50,594 nucleotides of DNA from positions 1 to 50,594 of the forward strand of contig JAZDNV010000016.1 of assembly GCA_043799385.1 (NCBI GenBank), written 5' to 3'. The position numbers and the translations under genes were made by a program. This DNA is from Candidatus Aenigmatarchaeota archaeon. Its GTDB lineage: Archaea > Aenigmatarchaeota > Aenigmatarchaeia > GW2011-AR5. Positions 7,207 to 50,557 of the stretch are shown here, piece after piece; position 1 is the stretch's first letter, and each line of letters begins with the position of its first letter. The notes beneath the pieces are model-generated. The model worked only from the letters and a program-made list of their open reading frames with translations. It was not told where the DNA came from and searched no databases.

Positions 7207-7980
7207 ATGTCAGTTGAAATTTATCCATCAGGAGCAAGCCTTGACGTAGATGAAGCCTTTGTCAAGGAGAAATTCGGGCAGATTTATCCGGATTCAGTTG
7301 GCATAATGGAAGAAGGCGTAGACAGATTCCATCTGGTTTGCTGGACCGATTCGGATTTCATACCAATAGCCAACATAGACAAAGAACAAGGTATGCAGGC
7401 TCTGAAAATAAGACTTGAAAAAGAGCTCTACGAGCATTATTGCAATCACGATGAAGTATCTTCTGCCTTAGGGGTTAGTCCATATCTGCTACCCAGGCAT
7501 GCAAAGATACTGGGCGTTGCTGTTCATGATATAAAGAAAAGTAAATTAAATGACACCCTTATCATGCATGGATATAGTGCAAAAAAGGCTGCTGAGGTTT
7601 TGAGTCAAGCATCAGGCACTGATTATACTGAAAAAAATCTAATGTTCGATATCGCCTGTCTGATTTTATGTCCAAGGATACCAATGTCCGTTGTATACTG
7701 TGATGGCGATGACGTGTGCATGAAAAGAAAGCCCATAGAAACCACAATGACAGCAAATGCACGATTAGCGGTTAAGAATAATGGTTATGAATTCAACTGG
7801 GAAATTAAAGGTCCTGGCGACGATATAATTGAAAGTGGCAGCAGCGTTAATTCGCTTTACCGTATAATCGGTTATGCGTCCAGCAGAATGTTCGGAACAG
7901 TTGAGGCGTATCTGACTGGTTCTACTAACGTGCCTGAGATAAAGGCGTTCTATAATAAATTCAGAAGGGAGCGCTCCTAG
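7207..7980 (+). CDS. Hypothetical protein
   Basis: 257-aa ORF with TTTAAA upstream; no family recognised; stop codon lies within the antisense 3' end of tRNA-Arg. Confidence 0.7.
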   Translation: MSVEIYPSGASLDVDEAFVKEKFGQIYPDSVGIMEEGVDRFHLVCWTDSDFIPIANIDKEQGMQALKIRLEKELYEHYCNHDEVSSALGVSPYLLPRHAKILGVAVHDIKKSKLNDTLIMHGYSAKKAAEVLSQASGTDYTEKNLMFDIACLILCPRIPMSVVYCDGDDVCMKRKPIETTMTANARLAVKNNGYEFNWEIKGPGDDIIESGSSVNSLYRIIGYASSRMFGTVEAYLTGSTNVPEIKAFYNKFRRERS

Positions 7981-8108
7981 CGCGATTTGAACGCGCGACC
8001 CCTTGCTTTCACACCTGACGGTATCATCATCACATAGCAAAGCTATGCTCTGTTCACCTCCGCGTCAGATAGGAGGCAAGTGCTCTATCCAAACTGAGCT
8101 ATAGGAGC
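7972..8108 (-). tRNA. tRNA-Arg(CCU) with a 62-nt intron (8008-8069, position 37/38)
   Basis: Acceptor GCTCCTA/TAGGAGC+G; D-loop GGA (A20, an Arg determinant); anticodon arm CTTGC-CT-CCT-A^A-GCAAG; T-loop TTCAAAT. No strict BHB, so 36/37 is also possible. Confidence 0.88.
8008..8069 (-). ncRNA. Candidate intron-encoded K-turn / box C/D-like RNA in tRNA-Arg(CCU)
   Basis: D-like CAGA (8052-8049), stem GCATAGC-TTT-GCTATGT, consensus C box ATGATGA (8030-8024), forming a standard kink-turn. Confidence 0.55.
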
Positions 8109-12407: not shown

Positions 12408-12496
12408 GGCCGCGACCGGGATTTGAACCCGGGCTAAAGGATCCACAGTCCTATGCACTCCGAAGATTTGTGCTACCAAGCTACACAATCGCGGCC
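12408..12496 (-). tRNA. tRNA-His(GUG) with a 15-nt intron at 27/28 (12453-12467)
   Basis: Encoded G-1; acceptor GCCGCGA/TCGCGGC+C; BHB GCAC-AA^A-TC(TTCG)GA-GTGC-AT^A; splicing restores AAGGA-CT-GTG-GA-TCCTT. Confidence 0.93.
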
Positions 12497-18443: not shown

Positions 18444-19067
18444 TCACGGTTTATGCCTTGTGATTTGATAGTATGTGCAGTCGCCTTCGTTGTCGACAAG
18501 AGCCCAAAGCATGCGTGCGCGGATGTTATGCGCTAATCGAACCGCACGCGAGAGTTCTTGAAAAGAGCATGTGAAATCTTCAGGAACAGTGAATACAATC
18601 CACTTAGTGTGCTCTTTTGCAGATTTCGGGCCTTTCTTCAACTGGACGCCACGTTCATATACGCGGAAGTCGCAGCCGAACTTGAATCCGGTTCGGACAA
18701 GAAGACCGCGTTCCCTCAAATCCTCGTATACACGATAGCGATGTGGAAGCCTCTTATCCAATGAAACAGCATGATTATACAATTCCTCGAAGCTTACAGT
18801 TTTCTTGTCCTTAAGGACGCGGATTCTGCCGCGCTTCAGCAGCAATAGCGACTCGATTAATGCAAGTTCAAGGCGGTCGCCGATCTGCTTGCCGTAGTAC
18901 CCTGGTTCATATATCTGATCCCATTTCTCAAAAACAACGATCTTATCTTCTTCCAATGAAGAATCTATGACTTCTTTCGGTTTTTCCCATTCAACATATT
19001 CTGGCATATCTTCCTTTTCTTCTTCAATAATCTTCTCTTCTTGTATTTTCTTCTTCTTTTTTCCCAT
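18444..19067 (-). CDS. endA: tRNA-splicing endonuclease, single catalytic (alpha-type) unit
   Basis: G.YG...LELALIES; VYEDLRERG..VRTGFKFGCDFRVYERG; VRLAH..R; ALVD..GD.TYY. Start likely the ATG at 19067 (track starts at 19103). Confidence 0.95.
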   Translation of the reverse strand: MGKKKKKIQEEKIIEEEKEDMPEYVEWEKPKEVIDSSLEEDKIVVFEKWDQIYEPGYYGKQIGDRLELALIESLLLLKRGRIRVLKDKKTVSFEELYNHAVSLDKRLPHRYRVYEDLRERGLLVRTGFKFGCDFRVYERGVQLKKGPKSAKEHTKWIVFTVPEDFTCSFQELSRAVRLAHNIRARMLWALVDNEGDCTYYQITRHKP

Positions 19068-19145
19068 AGAACCACTTGTCGCAATAGATAATTTCCTTAT
19101 CAATATTTAAATTGATTCTATTATTGTTGATTCATGCATGAGAAT

Positions 19146-19706
19146 TCAGTAGTTGGTTTCTCCTGTCGCGCAATTAACTGTATATTCCCCAGAATCGCAT
19201 TCTATCGTATTGTTTATCAGGTCCCAGTTCTTTACCGTTCCCTTCGATGTATCGTAAATCGAGCAGCACATCACTTTTACAGAGTTCTTGATAACCGCAT
19301 TTTTTATTGTCGTCTCGTTTTCATAGCTTGCCTTCCAGCCCTTGCTCTCGTTTTCGCATTTAGCCAATAATTCATTGAGACTTGTCGAATAATTCTGCAG
19401 CTCGGCAGTCCTTTTTTCGCATGCGGCTACATAGAACTCGCTCCTGCTCATTTTATCTTCACATACGCGGAGGCTGTAGTTTATGTCCATGGCAGTCAGT
19501 TCGCAGTTGCCTAACGACGACCTCACTGCGATTAGATCGTTCTTTGATTTGTTCAGTTCTGCTTCAATCCCCTCGGTATATGTGGCAAAAGTGGTCGCCC
19601 TGTTTGTTATGAAATAGAATGAAGCTATCAGGAAAATACATATGATTAAAATGAGTACGTACTTGCCGTTAAACCCCAGCTTTGGTGTGCTGTAGCTATA
19701 GGTCAT
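19146..19706 (-). CDS. Single-TM protein with Cys-studded coiled coil
   Basis: N-terminal TM, heptad region, CC and C-terminal Cys cluster. Confidence 0.7.
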   Translation of the reverse strand: MTYSYSTPKLGFNGKYVLILIICIFLIASFYFITNRATTFATYTEGIEAELNKSKNDLIAVRSSLGNCELTAMDINYSLRVCEDKMSRSEFYVAACEKRTAELQNYSTSLNELLAKCENESKGWKASYENETTIKNAVIKNSVKVMCCSIYDTSKGTVKNWDLINNTIECDSGEYTVNCATGETNY

Positions 19707-20045: not shown

Positions 20046-20134
20046 CGCCCTCGGCAGGACTCGAACCTGCGACCACCTGATAACTGTATATCATATTTAA
20101 CAGTCAGATGCTCTACCTGCTGAGCTACAAGGGC
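20046..20134 (-). tRNA. tRNA-Asn(GUU) with a 16-nt canonical 37/38 intron (20082-20097)
   Basis: GCCCTTG/CGAGGGC+G; strict BHB CTGT-TA^A-ATA(TGA)TAT-ACAG-TT^A. Confidence 0.95.
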
Positions 20135-34089: not shown

Positions 34090-34199
34090 GGGCCGGTAGC
34101 TCAGCTGGTTAGAACTCTTCAAAGAGTAACATGCAACTGTCTTATAAGGCATCTGAGCGTAAAAGCAGTAGGTCAGGAGTTCAAATCTCCTCCGGCCCA
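34090..34199 (+). tRNA. tRNA-Ile(UAU) with two introns: 23/24 (34114-34132) and 38/39 (34148-34164)
   Basis: GGGCCGG/CCGGCCC+A; BHB1 GTTA-GA^A...TAAC-AT^G; BHB2 TTAT-AA^G...GTAA-AA^G; mature 74 nt with ACTGT-CT-TAT-AA-GCAGT. Confidence 0.88.
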
Positions 34200-35590: not shown

Positions 35591-35663
35591 GGGCCCGTGG
35601 TCTAGCGGTTATGACGTCGCGTTCACGTCGCGAAGGTCGCAGGTTCAAATCCTGCCGAGCCCA
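35591..35663 (+). tRNA. tRNA-Val(CAC), no intron
   Basis: TCGCG-TT-CAC-GT-CGCGA; GCAGG-TTCAAAT-CCTGC; acceptor GGGCCCG/CGAGCCC+A with one C-A mismatch. Confidence 0.93.
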
Positions 35664-35691
35664 TTTAAAGATTAATGAGGAATTGATGAGC

Positions 35692-36681
35692 ATGAAGGCA
35701 ACGGCAACCGCAAATGCGAATATTGCTCTAGTTAAATATTGGGGTAAAAGGAGCTCGGATACAATTCTCCCGAAAAACGGAAGCATCTCGATGACATGTG
35801 ATGGGATGACAACTACGACAACAGTAGAATTCTCTGATGAATATAATGAGCATACGGTCGTAATAAATGACGAGGAATTCAAGAAGGATGAAAAGGATAT
35901 ACATGGCCATATCGACCGTATCTGCAAGCTGGCAGGAATAAAGCAGCATGCAAAAGTAATTTCAGAGAGCAATTTTCCGGTTGCAGCCGGACTCGCGAGC
36001 AGCGCCAGCGGCTTTTCAGCGTTAACAGTGGCAGCATGCGCGGCAGCTGGATTAAAACGGTCGCCAAAGGAATTGTCGATACTTACCCGTCAAGGCTCTG
36101 GTTCCGCTTGCCGAAGCATTTTCGGTGGTTTCGTTGAATGGAATCGCGGTGAAAAAGATGACGGTAGTGATAGTTATGCAGAATCGATCGTTGACAAGAA
36201 TTATTGGCCGGATTTCAGAATGGTTACGACTATCGTTGAGGTAAAGAAAAAGCCAGTTAGCAGCCGTGCAGGAATGGCCCAGACAGTAGCGACATCTCCT
36301 TATTATGATGGTTGGCTTAAAACGGTTAATGAAGATATGAAAAGCGTCAGAGACGGTATAAATGAAAGAAATTTTGTTAAAGTAGCAGAAACAGCTGAAT
36401 TCAATTGTTTGAAGATGCATGCGACGATGATAACGACAAAGCCGCCGATAATCTACTGGATACCAGCGACGATGGAGATTATTCATGCAGTAAGGCAGAT
36501 ACGCGAAGAAGGGATAGCCGCATATTTCACGATGGATGCAGGACCAAACGTCAAGGTCATGTGCCTTAAAGAAAATGAAAATGAGATAAGCAGAAGGATT
36601 CAGGAACTGGATGGCGTGATAAAGACGATAGTATGCAAGCCTGGCGAAGGAGCGAAAATAATCGACAAGCATTTATTTTAG
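35692..36681 (+). CDS. mvaD: Diphosphomevalonate decarboxylase
   Basis: NIALVKYWGK, SNFPVAAGLASSASG, GSGSACRS, SSRAGM, TMDAGPNV; start at 35692 or 35686 (track start lies in tRNA-Val). Confidence 0.95.
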   Translation: MKATATANANIALVKYWGKRSSDTILPKNGSISMTCDGMTTTTTVEFSDEYNEHTVVINDEEFKKDEKDIHGHIDRICKLAGIKQHAKVISESNFPVAAGLASSASGFSALTVAACAAAGLKRSPKELSILTRQGSGSACRSIFGGFVEWNRGEKDDGSDSYAESIVDKNYWPDFRMVTTIVEVKKKPVSSRAGMAQTVATSPYYDGWLKTVNEDMKSVRDGINERNFVKVAETAEFNCLKMHATMITTKPPIIYWIPATMEIIHAVRQIREEGIAAYFTMDAGPNVKVMCLKENENEISRRIQELDGVIKTIVCKPGEGAKIIDKHLF

Positions 36682-36692
36682 AGAGTGATGAA

Positions 36693-37634
36693 ATGACAGG
36701 AAGAGGCATTGGATATGGTAAAACTATTCTGTTTGGAGAACATTTTGTCGTTTACGGTTTCCCAGGAATCGCATCAGCGATAAGCGATTACACGATTGCA
36801 GAAGTTGAAGAAGGAGAAAAAGGTTTAACACTTATAGATAACAGGCATGCTGTTGAAGGCTACAAAGAAACAAAACAAGGCGAGATATCTAGGGGGCTTG
36901 AGCTTATTCTTAATTTTATGAAGATCGATGTTGACAAGACTCCATTAAAAATAACGCTTTCAGGCAATCTTGAATGCGCATCGGGTATAGGTGCGAGTGC
37001 AGCATTAGCAAGCAGCATCGCCAGGGCATTGAACGAGCATTTTGATTTCGGAATGAACGATGACCAGATTAATGAAGTTGCATACGAGGGCGAGAAGGGA
37101 AGTGCAGGCACACCAAGTGGTATAGATAATACATGTTCTACATATGGCGGGATGATTGTTTTCGAAAAAAATCTGGCTGGAGGCCCGAATAAAATTGAAA
37201 GAATTACTGTTGCGAAACCGTTAGACATAGTTATGGCAAGTACGGGAATAACCCAGGAGACAAAGGAAGTTGTGGCTGATGTTAAAAAAGAAAAAGACAG
37301 CAATCCTGAAAAATTTGACAAGATTTTTGTAGAATATAAAAGAGTTTTCGATGAGGCATTAATTGCCATAAAGAAAGGAGATGTCAAGAAAATAGGAGAG
37401 CTTATGGATAAGAATCAGGAACTACTTAGACAGATAACCGTCAGCTGCCATGAGATAGAAGAAATAGTATCAATCGCCAAAAATAACGGCGCTCTTGGCG
37501 CAAAATTAACTGGGACAGGAAGAGGGGGCCTTGTGATATCTCTTGCTTCAAACAGAGAAGAAGCAGAAAAAATATCAAAGACGATTGAAAATAAAGGCTT
37601 CAAAACTAGTATGACACAACTAGGAAAAAAGTAA
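36693..37634 (+). CDS. mvk: Mevalonate kinase
   Basis: GKTILFGEHFVVYG, SGIGASAA, GTPSGIDN, GAKLTGTGRGG. Confidence 0.95.
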   Translation: MTGRGIGYGKTILFGEHFVVYGFPGIASAISDYTIAEVEEGEKGLTLIDNRHAVEGYKETKQGEISRGLELILNFMKIDVDKTPLKITLSGNLECASGIGASAALASSIARALNEHFDFGMNDDQINEVAYEGEKGSAGTPSGIDNTCSTYGGMIVFEKNLAGGPNKIERITVAKPLDIVMASTGITQETKEVVADVKKEKDSNPEKFDKIFVEYKRVFDEALIAIKKGDVKKIGELMDKNQELLRQITVSCHEIEEIVSIAKNNGALGAKLTGTGRGGLVISLASNREEAEKISKTIENKGFKTSMTQLGKK

Positions 37635-37640
37635 GTTATA

Positions 37641-38756
37641 GTGAATTTTATGGTCCATACTTCTGCACCTGGAAAACAGATGTTAGCTGGCGAGTGGTCA
37701 GTCCTCGAGTTAGGTAATCCGTGCATAGTTGCCGCAGTAAACAAAAGGGTTCATGTGGAGATAGAAGAAAGCGAAGAGATTAGCATAACTGTCGATGATT
37801 TCAACATCAAGGACGTAAAAGCTGATTTTAATGGCAAGCAGCTAGCTTGGAAAAATGCAGATGACAAGGAAAAGGAAAAACTTATTTTTATCAAAGGAGC
37901 AATAGAAACAGCGTTGCAGTATCTTGGCGACTACAAGTCTTTCAAGCTGAGGAGCTGGGGGGAAGAGTCGCAAATTGTAGTAGATGGTGTTGCAAAAAAA
38001 GTCGGTTTCGGATCATCTGCAGCGTGTGTTGTTGCAACGGTGTCTGGGTTATTGAAGTTCAATGGTTATGATATTGATTGTAGAGAGTCCAATGATATAA
38101 TATATAAGTTATCAACAATCGCCCATTACTTTGCCCAGGGTAAAGTAGGAAGCGCATTCGACGTGGCCGCATCCACTTATGGCGGTGCAACCGTTTACAA
38201 GAGATTCGATCCAATCTGGTTGACAAAACGAATAGAATCAGAAACCGTCAAGAAGATAGCAGAAGAAGACTGGCCATACTTTTTTGTCGAGGAACTTAAG
38301 GTTTCAGATGATTTTATTCTTTTAGTTGGTTGGACAAAAGAATCAGCAAGCACGTCTGCTATGGTAAAACAGATGGATAATTTCAAGAATAACGACTTCA
38401 ATGAATACAAGAGGATATACGACGGTATATCAAAACTCGTTTGTGAGCTTATAGACGCATGGAAGGTAAATGATCAAGAAGAAATTCTGGCTCTGATAAA
38501 AAAGAATGAAGAATATCTCAGGGAGTTAGGGCAAAAAAGCGGGGTAAACATAGAAACGAAGGAACTCAAGCAGCTAGTTGATATAGCCAATGAGAATGGA
38601 GCAGCAGGAAAGCTCTCCGGAGCAGGAGGCGGAGATTGCGGAATTGCTGTATGCTTCAGTAGCGATGTTGTAGAAAAAATAATAGAGGAATGGCAGAACG
38701 CAGGGCTCTACCCACTGGATGTAAGCATAGATTATGACGGGGTAAGAGAGGAATGA
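37641..38756 (+). CDS. Phosphomevalonate kinase (GHMP, Gram-positive MvaK2/ERG8 type)
   Basis: SAPGKQMLAGEWSVLE, KVGFGSSAA, AHYFAQGKVGSAFDVAASTYGG, KLSGAGGGDCG. Confidence 0.92.
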   Translation: MNFMVHTSAPGKQMLAGEWSVLELGNPCIVAAVNKRVHVEIEESEEISITVDDFNIKDVKADFNGKQLAWKNADDKEKEKLIFIKGAIETALQYLGDYKSFKLRSWGEESQIVVDGVAKKVGFGSSAACVVATVSGLLKFNGYDIDCRESNDIIYKLSTIAHYFAQGKVGSAFDVAASTYGGATVYKRFDPIWLTKRIESETVKKIAEEDWPYFFVEELKVSDDFILLVGWTKESASTSAMVKQMDNFKNNDFNEYKRIYDGISKLVCELIDAWKVNDQEEILALIKKNEEYLRELGQKSGVNIETKELKQLVDIANENGAAGKLSGAGGGDCGIAVCFSSDVVEKIIEEWQNAGLYPLDVSIDYDGVREE

Positions 38757-39277
38757 ACGAAATGCTAATTCTCGTCGACAAGAATGACAAGGAAATCGGT
38801 TTCGAGGAGAAGGAGAAATGCCATCTGAATCCGGCAAAACTGCACCGCGCTTTTTCAATATTCATTTTCAACCGAAAAAATGAAATGCTCGTGCACAAGC
38901 GAAGCACAAAGAAAAAAACATGGCCCGGATTCTGGACCAACGCCTGCTGCTCGCACCCACGAAAAGGCGAAACGACTGATTTTGCTGCGAAAAGAAGATT
39001 AAAAGAAGAGCTAGGATTTGCAACAGAGCTTAAGCAGATATCCAAATTCCAGTATGACGCCAAGTATGATGAAAAATACGGAGAAAATGAGTTCGATTAC
39101 GTTTTTGCCGGTTTTTATGATGGAAAGGTAAATGCTGACAAGAATGAAATTGATGAGTGGAAGTATGTCAATCTCGATGCATTACTGAAGGATATGAGGA
39201 ATGCGCCAGAAAAGTATACTCCGTGGTTCAAGATAGCGCTACCTAGAGTCGTAGATTATATTAAGAAGAACAATTAG
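38753..39277 (+). CDS. idi: Isopentenyl-diphosphate isomerase type 1 (Nudix fold)
   Basis: LHRAFSIFIF, WTNACCSHP, RRLKEELG, ENEFDYV, YTPWF. Confidence 0.95.
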   Translation: MNEMLILVDKNDKEIGFEEKEKCHLNPAKLHRAFSIFIFNRKNEMLVHKRSTKKKTWPGFWTNACCSHPRKGETTDFAAKRRLKEELGFATELKQISKFQYDAKYDEKYGENEFDYVFAGFYDGKVNADKNEIDEWKYVNLDALLKDMRNAPEKYTPWFKIALPRVVDYIKKNN

Positions 39278-39508: not shown

Positions 39509-40462
39509 ATGATTGCAACAGTGGCAAAAACGCCCATCGGAGTATTCGCTTTCTCGGAGAAGGGTGAATTGTTATATTACAAGCTGTTTAGCAGGGACGC
39601 GGCAAAAGCGGTTGACGAGTTCCTGTCACCTGCTGAAAACCATATCACTGAGATGAAAGGATATGAGATAAAGGAAGACAGGTCCGGAAGGCTGATAAGA
39701 AAGAAAATGCGCGAGTATGCGATTGATTTAGGCTTCGTAAAGAATGATAGCGAGTTAAACGTTTTTCTTTCTGGCTTTGCCCTGATATTGTCGAAAAAGA
39801 GGATGAAAATCATTATTGGTCGCGATCGTTTGGTCGTGCAGGCCAGCAATGCTCTCGACGACTTGAATAAGATACATAACCTTTTGCTAGAGAGATTGCG
39901 AGAATGGTATTCTCTGCATTACCCGGAGTCAAGACCTGATATTGAAAAAATAATCAAATACGGCAGGCGCGAGAATTTCCCAGATTTCCAGGAATCCACG
40001 GGCATCGAAATAAATGGCAATGACGAGCGCATACTGAAAGATTATGCATTGATGATAAAGGATGTTTCTGAAAAAAAGAACGAAATCGAACGTTATGTCA
40101 AGGAATCAATGAAGGAGATAACGCCGAACGTATCTTCGCTGCTCGAGCCGCTGCTGGCTGCGCGTTTGCTGGCCCTGGCAGGCTCGCTGGAACGATTGGC
40201 CAAGATGCCGTCTTCGACTATACAATTACTGGGCGCGGAAAAAGCATTGTTCCGTCATCTGAAGAAGCAGGGACGCTCACCGAAGTACGGTTTGATATTT
40301 ATGGATTCTCACATACAGAACGCTAGAAATGAGAACAAAGGCAAGATAGCGCGATTGCTTGCTGCAAAGCTTATGCAGGCGGCAAAGATAGACTTTTATT
40401 CCGGACGCTATGAGGAGAAATTAAAAAAAGAATTGGAAGAAGAGATAAAGGCGGTAAAATGA
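39509..40462 (+). CDS. nop5: Box C/D RNP scaffold Nop5 (Nop56/58)
   Basis: ERLREWYSLHYPE, LAKMPSSTIQLLGAEKALF, PKYGLIF, GKIARLLAAK. Confidence 0.95.
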   Translation: MIATVAKTPIGVFAFSEKGELLYYKLFSRDAAKAVDEFLSPAENHITEMKGYEIKEDRSGRLIRKKMREYAIDLGFVKNDSELNVFLSGFALILSKKRMKIIIGRDRLVVQASNALDDLNKIHNLLLERLREWYSLHYPESRPDIEKIIKYGRRENFPDFQESTGIEINGNDERILKDYALMIKDVSEKKNEIERYVKESMKEITPNVSSLLEPLLAARLLALAGSLERLAKMPSSTIQLLGAEKALFRHLKKQGRSPKYGLIFMDSHIQNARNENKGKIARLLAAKLMQAAKIDFYSGRYEEKLKKELEEEIKAVK

Positions 40463-41106
40463 AAGAGATATTTTCAGGCGTTTTTGTTGATGGAAAAAAA
40501 CTATATACAATGAACTTGGTTCATGGCAGCAGCGTATATGGCGAAAAACTGGTTAAGCATGATGGCAAAGAATTGCGCGAGTGGGTTCCGACGAGAAGCA
40601 AACTCGCGGCGGCATTGCTAAATGGCCTGAAAGAATTGAACACAGGAAAGCGGATTATGTATCTTGGTGCATCGACTGGCACGACTATATCGCACGTATC
40701 TGATATTGTTGGTGAAGACGGAGTCGTTTATGCCATCGAGTTTGCCGAGCGCGTGTTTAGGAACTTGGTGGAATTATGCAAAAAGAGAAAAAACATAGTC
40801 CCTATTCTTGCAGACGCTAGGAAGCCAGAAGAGTACTATTGGGCCGAGGAATGCGATATGGTTTACTGCGATATCGCTGATCCCCAGGAAACGGAGATAG
40901 CGATGCGCAACGCAAATGAATTCTTGAAGAAAGGAGGATATATTATGATTGCAATAAAATCGCAGAGCATAGACGTCACAAAAAAGCCGTCGCAAGTCTA
41001 CAAAGAGGAGAGGGAAAAATTAGTGAAAGCTGGCTTTAGCGTTCTGCAATCAGTGGATTTGGAGCCGTACGAGGAAAAGCATTGCATGATAGTGGCGAAG
41101 AAATAA
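40459..41106 (+). CDS. flpA: Fibrillarin-like 2'-O-methyltransferase
   Basis: VYGE, REW.P.RSKLAAA, YLGASTGTTISHVSD, NIVPILADA, LEPYEEKH. Confidence 0.97.
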   Translation: MKEIFSGVFVDGKKLYTMNLVHGSSVYGEKLVKHDGKELREWVPTRSKLAAALLNGLKELNTGKRIMYLGASTGTTISHVSDIVGEDGVVYAIEFAERVFRNLVELCKKRKNIVPILADARKPEEYYWAEECDMVYCDIADPQETEIAMRNANEFLKKGGYIMIAIKSQSIDVTKKPSQVYKEEREKLVKAGFSVLQSVDLEPYEEKHCMIVAKK

Positions 41107-49888: not shown

Positions 49889-50410
49889 ATGAACAGGTTT
49901 GAGATTGCTTACAAGCTTGTAGAAGAATTCGGCAAGATATGCCCTGCTGATTCGAAGTGCGGTTCATTTTGCGAATTATCGGAGTTCGCCATTTTCCTGC
50001 CAGAAGAATTCGAATATCTGGTAAAAAGGAACAAAATAATCGGCGGTGAAAGAAAGAGATTTTCCAAGCTTTTCAGAGTTAATGGCAAAGAGGTATACAT
50101 ACAGCCTGCAGACGGGCAAAGCTGTCCGTTCTACAAACACGGAAGATGCATCAACCGAAATGCGAGACCTCTAGATTGCAGAACCTATCCAGTGATGCCG
50201 TGCTTAAAAAACGGAAAACTATCCGTAAAACTAGCAGAACGATGTTTTTTGTTTAAACAGAATAAAATTACAAAGAATATGGTAAAAAAAGCCCTTATGG
50301 TATGGAAGTTGGTAAACCCACCGAACTGGTGGCTGGAGATATACGAAAAATTATGCGAGGGGCCGGATTCGAACCGACGAACCCAATCCTCAAAAACGCG
50401 AAGAAACTGA
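49889..50410 (+). CDS. YkgJ-like Cys-cluster (Fe-S or Zn) protein
   Basis: C....CGSFC...CPFY..GRC....RPLDCRTYP...C; 3' end overlaps tRNA-Leu on the opposite strand. Confidence 0.85.
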   Translation: MNRFEIAYKLVEEFGKICPADSKCGSFCELSEFAIFLPEEFEYLVKRNKIIGGERKRFSKLFRVNGKEVYIQPADGQSCPFYKHGRCINRNARPLDCRTYPVMPCLKNGKLSVKLAERCFLFKQNKITKNMVKKALMVWKLVNPPNWWLEIYEKLCEGPDSNRRTQSSKTRRN

Positions 50411-50557
50411 CGACAGTGATCGTCTTTTTGTCTCTGCGTTCTTTCTAAGGGACAAGATCTTGAGTATCGCTATCATTTGACACAGCTACACGGCCAATCG
50501 TGTATGTGCTTCAAGACTCAAAATGCCTTGCGCCTTTGGCCGCTTGGCTACCCTCGC
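50354..50557 (-). tRNA. tRNA-Leu(CAA) with two long introns: 30/31 (50466-50526, 61 nt) and variable arm (50386-50444, 59 nt)
   Basis: GCGAGGG/CCCTCGC+A; removing both leaves 84 nt with CAAGA-CT-CAA-GA-TCTTG and variable arm TCCCTTAGTGGGTTC; intron 2 has BHB CCTT-AG^A...GAGG-AT^T. Confidence 0.88.
50466..50526 (-). ncRNA. Candidate intron-encoded, permuted box C/D guide RNA for Cm34 of tRNA-Leu(CAA)
   Basis: Guide ATTTTGAGTC (50524-50515), D-like TTGA (50514-50511), hairpin, C-like ATGATAG (50476-50470); the D+5 base faces C34. Confidence 0.6.

Follow-up and report, generated by a model that had tools for sequence, protein, structure and literature searches.

Guide RNAs for ribose methylation choose their target by the D+5 rule, under which the nucleotide paired with the fifth base upstream of box D is modified (PMC2584109), and the intron of euryarchaeal tRNA-Trp is a described guide of this kind that acts on its own tRNA, directing the 2'-O-methylation of C34 and U39 (Cm34 and Um39; PMC7994747, PMC11408192, PMC4033218). 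In Pyrococcus, small RNAs (sRNAs) have predicted targets at the wobble base in the tRNAs for Leu (CAA and UAA anticodons), Met and Trp, the guide for Trp being the intron (PMC7994747), and sR47 of P. abyssi guides the methylation of C34 of tRNA-Leu(CAA) in vitro (PMC3413156). The TrmL protein of E. coli forms Cm34 or 5-carboxymethylaminomethyl-2'-O-methyluridine (cmnm5Um34) in tRNA-Leu isoacceptors (PMC4033218). In the accessible portions of the reviews of 2014, 2021 and 2024, no intron-encoded methylation guide is named besides the tRNA-Trp intron, which is likewise the sole intron-borne guide named in the corresponding part of the 2024 review of intron-dependent modifications (PMC11408192). 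Here we describe a tRNA-Leu(CAA) gene whose first intron (intron 1) probably carries a box C/D-type guide for the wobble base of its own tRNA. The gene lies on the archaeal contig JAZDNV010000016.1, and the whole 50,594-nt stretch that was analysed (42% G+C) is called the window, with coordinates counted from its first letter. An earlier inspection of the letters (the sequence-only reading) had proposed a guide in this intron and knew of no described C/D guide in a Leu intron; our literature search agrees with it, having found no description of one, a weak negative given that the search could not match the string "C/D".

The three exons of the gene (50557..50527, 50465..50445 and 50385..50354) join into a class II cloverleaf of 84 nt that has a long variable arm, the anticodon CAA and the discriminator A. 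Neither ARAGORN nor Rfam, the latter in gathering and E-value modes, called this gene at 50354..50557 when run on the window, because two introns interrupt it. The 61 nt of intron 1 on the minus strand, from 50526 to 50466, agree letter for letter with the parse of the sequence-only reading, and its parts follow one another as GC, AUUUUGAGUC, UUGA, AG, hairpin, UCAA, AUGAUAG and CGAU. The gene and the elements of the putative guide are the following.

50354..50557, minus strand: tRNA-Leu(CAA) gene with two introns, whose spliced exons fold as a cloverleaf.
50527..50557, minus strand: exon 1, tRNA positions 1-30, with C25-A28 as one of the two strands in the splice motif's central helix.
50466..50526, minus strand: intron 1, 61 nt, between G30 and A31, aligned with 10 homologous introns (alignment A1).
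50445..50465, minus strand: exon 2, region of positions 31-47, with the predicted target C34 at window position 50462.
50386..50444, minus strand: intron 2, 59 nt, in the variable arm, with the boundaries that give the cloverleaf.
50354..50385, minus strand: exon 3, the 3' part of the variable arm, the T arm, the 3' acceptor strand and the discriminator A of the spliced cloverleaf.
50515..50524, minus strand: antisense (putative guide) element AUUUUGAGUC, complementary to G30-U39, with a TTGAG core that is invariant or nearly so in A1.
50511..50514, minus strand: box D-like UUGA, whose last A is kept in 11 of 11 introns of A1 and whose G in 8 of 11.
50480..50509, minus strand: hairpin GCACA..UGUGU around UACACG..CGUGUA, at the place of the C-stem of a kink-turn, where homologues have unrelated hairpins or a short loop.
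50470..50476, minus strand: box C-like AUGAUAG, whose RUGA is found in 11 of 11 introns and whose last two bases also belong to a helix of the splice motif.

The antisense element makes nine contiguous pairs with A31-U39 of the 3' exon, one of them G-U, and gains a tenth, C-G30, once the exons are spliced, which together are the 10 bp first noticed against G30-U39. By eye, the complementarity can be extended through the UUG of box D and across the exon junction to C27, as had also been proposed, to give 13 pairs, one of them G-U. C34 pairs with the fifth base upstream of UUGA, the register that the D+5 rule would demand of a guide for Cm34. The two boxes of the window depart from the textbook forms in a compensating way, a further claim of the sequence-only reading that stood: D1 is U and pairs with the A at C6 beside a U.U, and the C at X1 pairs with the G at C7. 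Both G.A pairs are possible, followed by U.U, A-U and G-C, and the flanking stem has extra unpaired bases. In 20000 dinucleotide shuffles of the window intron, at least nine pairs covering nucleotide 34 (N34) arose in 1.0%, such pairing with an NNGA box in the D+5 register in 0.075%, and both with a downstream RUGA in 0.04%.

Homologues were drawn from one scan of genome contigs with a degenerate 5' exon pattern that fixes GGCGCAAG. Of the 113 stretches that matched, 68 begin like archaeal tRNA-Leu and were kept, and 45, mostly bacterial coding DNA, were dropped as chance matches. The anticodon arm is uninterrupted in 33 of the 68 genes, all of which have the anticodon CAG, UAG or GAG. The 35 loci with an interrupted arm (cited below by L numbers) and the window comprise ten CAA genes, the window included, one UAA gene (L086) and 25 genes that read CUN codons. 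The ten CAA/UAA homologues come from ten different species-level genomes, six labelled Aenigmatarchaeota or Aenigmarchaeota and four labelled as unclassified archaea; by the exon-pattern scan, the window gene is closest in likeness to genes of Aenigmatarchaeota genome bins. The intron lies at 30/31 in seven genes (the window and six homologues) and at 37/38 in four and is between 27 and 61 nt long; the MAFFT alignment of the 11 introns (A1) holds together on three blocks.

All 11 CAA/UAA genes carry the same module, defined as an antisense element that covers N34 with 6 bp or more, followed by one base, the D-like box, a hairpin or loop, and RUGA. When this was put as an automated test, a loose form (NNNA box) was positive in 10 of the 11, L091 failing the stem test only, a strict form (NNGA box together with kink-turn or K-loop geometry) was positive in 7 of the 11, and the module was found in none of the 25 interrupted CUN-reading genes. 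The partner of N34, which is U34 in L086, is the fifth base upstream of the box in every one of the 11 despite the changes in length and position, and the single base between the antisense element and the box is constant over the whole range of intron lengths. Within A1 the antisense core TTGAG is invariant save for the base opposite N34, and the last A of the D-like box and the TGA of the C-like box are invariant too. The D-like boxes read UUGA (window), AUGA (two), ACGA, UCGA, CUGA (three), AUAA (two) and AGUA, and the C-like boxes AUGAUAG (window), AUGAAUG (four), AUGACUG, GUGAUUG, AUGAGAG, AUGAUGA and AUGAAGA (two). Textbook boxes occur in L038, where CUGA is separated from AUGAUGA by 3 nt, and in L094 and L086, which combine CUGA with AUGAAGA.

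Several pairings within this module change in concert. The pair D4.C3 is A.G in 11 of 11 introns and D3.C4 is G.A in 8 of 11, while D1:C6 is a Watson-Crick pair in all 11 with three pair types (U-A, A-U and C-G), a degree of pairing reached by 23 of 100000 permutations, or by 239 of 100000 when 8 representatives are used, both counts ignoring shared descent. In the window, the A at C6 breaks the fourth pair of the splice helix, yet the U at D1 retains the box pair. Between the boxes, L001, L038, L094 and L086 have a short loop (K-loops, 3-7 nt), and the window, L030, L107, L052, L079, L091 and L024 have a hairpin of unrelated sequence; in these seven introns the stem begins at once after the GA of box D and stops 3 or 4 nt before the GA of box C, a placement that corresponds to kink-turn or K-loop geometry. 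The antisense element also follows its target: G31 faces C in L038, L094 and L086, A31 faces U in the others, and U34 faces A in the Leu(UAA) gene L086. The longer elements make 9 pairs in the window (10 when spliced), 10 in L024 and L086 and 8 in L091, and the full module arose in 0.06-2.7% of 5000 shuffles per homologue. The comparison with homologues called for by the sequence-only reading, here widened from boxes and guide-target covariation to the register, found all three kept in ten related Leu(CAA/UAA) introns. Conservation, register and covariation in these ten genomes thus support the core of that reading, a C/D-type guide for the gene's own C34. Only the two Leu isoacceptors known from other organisms to carry a methylated wobble ribose have the module, and this restriction offers, by analogy, the strongest biological reason to take the D+5 register as meaningful.

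The same intron has to be spliced, and its ends can be read as parts of a bulge-helix-bulge motif, the strands of which lie as follows.

50466..50471, minus strand: AGCG plus AU, of which AGCG pairs with C25-C27 as the intron's share of the central helix, and AU makes the 3' bulge with A31.
50518..50525, minus strand: 5' strand of the outer helix, CAUUUUGA, overlapping the antisense element.
50474..50480, minus strand: 3' strand of the outer helix, UCAAAUG, overlapping box C.

The CGAU tail is assigned to the central helix and the 3' bulge from its complementarity to C25-A28 and from the cut positions. In the 30/31 introns the last six bases are (U/A)GCG plus two bases, and this strand is complementary to C25-A28 (CGCA) at three or more of the four positions in 43 of 44 candidate 30/31 3' splice sites, a set that includes those of the 19 genes without the guide. 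The central helix of the window consists of C25-G, G26-C and C27-G with an A28.A mismatch (3 of 4 pairs), and the bulges are A29 G30 G and A U A31; a cut after the second base of each 3-nt bulge puts both splice sites exactly at the intron ends given by the sequence-only reading. The motif is relaxed, with 2-3 extra unpaired bases before the outer helix, and no strict hBHBh' motif appears in the minimum free energy (MFE) fold of the precursor, the splice motif having been recovered by comparison only. The outer helix is made of the intron 5' end and the box C region and has at least 5 bp in 8 of the 11 introns: CAUUU/AAAUG in the window, UCAUU.../...AAUGA in L052, GUCAUU/GAUGAC in L079, UCACC/GGUGA with two compensatory changes in L091, and CUUAU/AUGAG in L024. 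The antisense element itself stands outside the splice motif, which uses C25-A28 and the intron tail or, in the 37/38 introns, the intron 3' end. In intron 2 of the window, GAGG and the CCUU of exon 2 were read by eye as the paired strands of the central helix in a second splice motif, and L001 also has an intron at this place.

Other tRNA-Leu genes of the survey show further interruptions. The Leu(CAA) genes L001, L030, L107, L052, L079 and L091 have a second intron at 37/38, by which the anticodon loop becomes a 7-nt micro-exon, and the window is without it. This second intron ends in UGAG plus AU in L052 and L079, matching a canonical splice helix with C32-A35, and in UGGG plus AU (L001, L030, L107) or AGAG plus AU (L091), which fit such a helix more loosely. 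Nineteen tRNA-Leu genes from Aenigmatarchaeota or unclassified archaeal bins (L014, L016, L017, L020, L031, L037, L041, L042, L044, L059, L065, L070, L072, L073, L078, L085, L090, L092 and L108) have a single 5' half and a single 3' half with two tandem anticodon-loop cassettes between them, GCUUAGG and then GCUCAGA. A splice-motif strand of the form (U/G)GCGA(A/U) precedes all but three of their 38 cassettes, and in L041, L072, L090 and L108 the first cassette abuts exon 1 with no intron before it. Alternative splicing of such a gene could give both tRNA-Leu(UAG) and tRNA-Leu(CAG), an arrangement of which a literature search found no description. Large insertions in the T loop or variable arm are present in L052, L042, L078, L079 and L090; that in the T loop of L052 is about 150 nt long and contains a unit of about 29 nt repeated three times.

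The folding of the window precursor was compared in its alternative forms by nearest-neighbour prediction, in which kink-turns and bound proteins cannot be scored. In the MFE structure (-77.3 kcal/mol) the guide-target duplex is stacked on the anticodon stem, with pair probabilities of 0.59-0.91, and forcing the splice motif gives -65.1 kcal/mol, about 12 above the minimum. When the anticodon-arm regions of the 11 genes were folded alone, the pair at N34 had a probability above 0.75 in five and of 0.26-0.38 in two. These results divide the earlier claim that the precursor guide can be masked by a helix between CAUUU(U)GA and UCAAAUG: the helix is real, covaries (UCACC/GGUGA in L091) and is selected as the outer helix of the splice motif, but the guide of the precursor is predicted to lie on its target, not masked. 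Because the outer helix hides box C, the splice conformer and the kink-turn or guide conformer exclude each other.

We hypothesize that intron 1 is an intron-borne, single-guide RNA of the C/D type with one box pair, directing Cm34 in its own tRNA-Leu(CAA), and we consider this the probable explanation of the sequence. From the parts described above we infer protein binding, methylation and an order of events. UUGA and AUGAUAG would form a kink-turn or K-loop closed by the intron hairpin, which would bind L7Ae and then Nop5-fibrillarin; the 10-nt antisense element upstream of box D would pair with the anticodon loop of the same tRNA, and C34, the fifth paired nucleotide from box D, would receive the 2'-O-methyl group. 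The AGCG-AU tail, together with the helix between the intron 5' end and box C, would build the bulge-helix-bulge motif for the splicing endonuclease, and in that conformer box C and part of the guide would be hidden, which would make guiding and splicing mutually exclusive states of one precursor. Methylation may take place in cis before splicing, an order suggested because the guide-target conformer is the more stable one in the window precursor; an excised intron, linear or circular, that acts in trans would fit equally well.

Several observations weigh against this hypothesis, and a good part of them would fit an intron that is structural only, in which the antisense element, the hairpin and the GA motifs are features of one bulge-helix-bulge intron family that give the precursor its form, for example to shield the anticodon loop or to set the order in which several introns are removed, and the likeness to boxes is an inherited coincidence with no methylation. 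In at least 6 introns RUGA doubles as a strand of the outer splice helix, and the tail and positions 6-7 of box C, the latter within the central helix, are likewise constrained by the splice motif, so part of the conservation has another cause. The G of box D is absent in 3 of 11 introns (AUAA in L030 and L107, AGUA in L079), and the guides make only 6-7 pairs in 7 of 11. The introns are homologous and may all descend from a single ancestor (A1), whereby conservation and permutation counts overstate independence. The free window intron is predicted to be a rod of -13.9 kcal/mol with UUGA paired with UCAA and both boxes sequestered. A structural role would leave other features without a reason, as neither the 30/31 nor the 37/38 introns use the antisense element as a splice-motif strand, the one-base spacing is fixed in introns of such different length, and three members have textbook boxes. 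Nor would it account for the module in all the genes of isoacceptors methylated elsewhere at the wobble base versus none of the 25 others, or for the D1:C6 pair, which covaries through three pair types and is retained in the window at the cost of a splice-helix pair. On this evidence we regard a structural role alone as unlikely, though it deserves serious consideration. Further points tell against the guide reading. Cis pairing of guide and target has a probability below 0.1 in 4 of the 11 precursor arms, and the kink-turn geometry of the window is not ideal, with one unpaired A between the GA of box D and the stem and with CA and AAU unpaired between the stem and the GA of box C. No second box pair was found, intron 1 having one and intron 2, by eye, none. 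Archaeal small ribonucleoproteins normally work with two box pairs; "half-mer" guides are used in vitro. No Rfam C/D family matched the window or the ten homologous loci, on which Rfam found tRNA only, in the four genes with 37/38 introns. The survey covers one collection and, in it, the genes that fit a single exon pattern with GGCGCAAG fixed, and thereby a single type of anticodon stem. The predicted Cm34 of P. furiosus tRNA-Leu(CAA) is left open as an in vivo observation in the part of the literature available on it (PMC7668247).

A kink-turn that serves no methylation was also considered, in which L7Ae would be bound as a chaperone or switch for the folding and splicing of a multi-intron precursor and the antisense element would only hold the anticodon loop. 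The kink-turn signature does adjoin the splice motif, the kink-turn and the splice conformer are mutually exclusive, and a single box pair is unusual for a methylation guide, but this explanation has no place for an N34 partner that always lies five bases from the box (11 of 11) or for the restriction of the module to CAA/UAA isoacceptors, and it seems to us quite improbable. The sequence-only reading had taken the intron for a circularly permuted guide, functional only once it is excised and circularised, which would create the order C-guide-D, and had suggested that splicing activates it. Archaeal tRNA introns and C/D sRNAs are indeed known as circles (PMC7994747). The topology of the hairpin members is also, formally, that of a permuted terminal C/D motif. 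The internal D'/C' motif of archaeal sRNAs, however, ordinarily runs in the order guide, D', short loop and C', and four homologues are plain K-loops of 3-7 nt, so that D before C requires no circle. The usual C/D spacer of archaea is about 12 nt, and through the circle junction the C-to-D spacer is 11-28 nt across the introns; these spacers look unconstrained, and a circle restoring the usual length was rejected as a constraint. Activation by splicing finds no support in the predicted folds, where the guide is already on its target in the window precursor and both boxes are sequestered in the free intron. A guide that works exclusively as a circle is therefore very improbable in our judgement, and circular-intron action in general is neither supported nor excluded. 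Finally, with boxes so short and degenerate and a finding made by eye, chance resemblance in an A+U-rich intron had to be considered; the rarity of the complete arrangement among shuffles of the window intron (0.04%) and its recurrence in ten other genomes, at loci that are not assembly duplicates since their introns differ, make chance scarcely credible.

Beyond the guide reading of the window intron, a broader and more tentative proposal can be made, which we think rather doubtful at present: that in the lineage of the Aenigmatarchaeota, and perhaps more widely in DPANN, the wobble guides of Leu(CAA) and Leu(UAA) have moved into the introns of their targets as single-kink-turn guides, box C being interleaved with the splice motif as a switch that orders Cm34 before intron removal, and one box pair with 6-10 bp being enough in cis. 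If the guide reading of these introns holds, there would be a second, structurally simpler class of intron guides, in another tRNA and another lineage, and the guide within the target's intron would be a recurring solution. The Leu introns would also offer a natural single-guide, single-kink-turn substrate for studying the assembly of the C/D particle on one box pair, and would represent a third, RNA-guided route to Leu wobble methylation, in small-genome archaea, beside bacterial TrmL and eukaryotic Trm7. The guide reading also makes it possible to test whether alternative folds of a single precursor set modification and splicing in competition. As ARAGORN and Rfam miss such genes, tRNA-Leu(CAA) would look absent from these genomes.

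The protein components that such a mechanism would need are partly encoded in the window.

39509..41106, plus strand: intact genes for Nop5 and fibrillarin, the methylation machinery.
18444..19103, minus strand: tRNA splicing endonuclease gene, 219 aa, with N- and C-terminal domains, by protein family matches.

A gene for L7Ae was not identified among the window genes. Several aminoacyl-tRNA synthetases, a thermosome subunit and topoisomerase VI are also encoded. A 186-aa open reading frame (ORF) of no known family follows the splicing endonuclease (18444-19706, minus strand), and it is speculation that it could be the second subunit of a broad-specificity enzyme. On the strand opposite the tRNA-Leu gene, a 173-aa ORF (49889-50410, plus strand), which matches no family in Pfam or NCBIfam, shares about 57 nt with exon 3 and intron 2, and its end may be over-called. 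A match to the snoRNA GlsR6 in the window was set aside, as it lies on the opposite strand with an E-value of 0.28 and a score of 15.8 bits, far short of the gathering score of 75. Canonical RUGAUGA...CUGA was matched 7 times by a regular-expression scan of the window, and at least one match (7961-8033) reaches beyond the listed ORFs; at about 7975-8010 on the minus strand, a T-arm-like stretch, GGTCGCGCGTTCAAATCGCGC, adjoins a GTGATGA...CTGA match, and no tRNA was called there. Other tRNA genes of the window are irregular as well. At 34090-34199 (plus strand) a tRNA with the anticodon UAU (Ile), not found by ARAGORN, has insertions of about 21 nt in the D arm and about 17 nt after the anticodon in the Rfam alignment, and at 20046-20134 (minus strand) a tRNA-Asn(GUU) with a short anticodon-loop intron was output by ARAGORN as an undetermined tRNA with a 4-base anticodon. 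A tRNA-like match at 12414-12477 (minus strand), with the anticodon GUG (His), covers model positions 6-65 only, has an odd D arm and unmatched acceptor ends, and may be an interrupted or split gene. The cluster at 35611-39277 (plus strand) comprises diphosphomevalonate decarboxylase, mevalonate kinase, a Gram-positive-type phosphomevalonate kinase and type 1 isopentenyl diphosphate (IPP) isomerase; together they make up the classical mevalonate route, an unusual find in an archaeon.

Compared with known systems, the window intron shares with the Trp intron of Pyrococcus (sR50) and Haloferax volcanii, as far as the latter is described in the sources available, a guide inside the intron of its own target, C34 chosen by D+5 and excision through a bulge-helix-bulge motif. 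The Trp intron differs in being a full dual guide with C, D', C' and D boxes, two targets (C34 and U39) and the canonical tRNA-Trp position, in Euryarchaeota, whereas the family of the window has one box pair, one guide and one target, sits at 30/31 or 37/38 of tRNA-Leu(CAA) or tRNA-Leu(UAA) and occurs in Aenigmatarchaeota-like genomes. There is no detectable sequence relation between the two and no Rfam match, and as read here the Leu intron works like an sR50-type Trp guide yet falls outside that family. With sR47 of P. abyssi the Leu module shares the predicted target nucleotide, and the synthetic substrate oligonucleotide used with sR47 holds the same 10-nt G30-U39 (PMC3413156), although sR47, as reported there, comes from a gene of its own, acts in trans and has two box pairs and a 12-nt guide. 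The internal C'/D' K-loop half of archaeal sRNAs resembles the Leu introns in the order of elements, in degenerate boxes and in a target five nucleotides from D', but such a half normally sits in an RNA with terminal C and D boxes, while the Leu module would stand alone and has a hairpin in place of the loop in 7 of 11. Non-canonical bulge-helix-bulge introns of archaeal tRNAs are like that of the window in the 30/31 position, the central helix between exon 25-28 and the tail, the 3-nt bulges and the presence of several introns in one gene, the window differing in its relaxed motif and in an antisense and box module that splicing does not need. In bacteria TrmL and in eukaryotes Trm7-Trm734 are described as placing the 2'-O-methyl at nucleotide 34 (Nm34) of the UUR-reading tRNA-Leu isoacceptors (PMC4033218, PMC6847430), as the Leu module would do, but they are protein-only enzymes and use no guide RNA.

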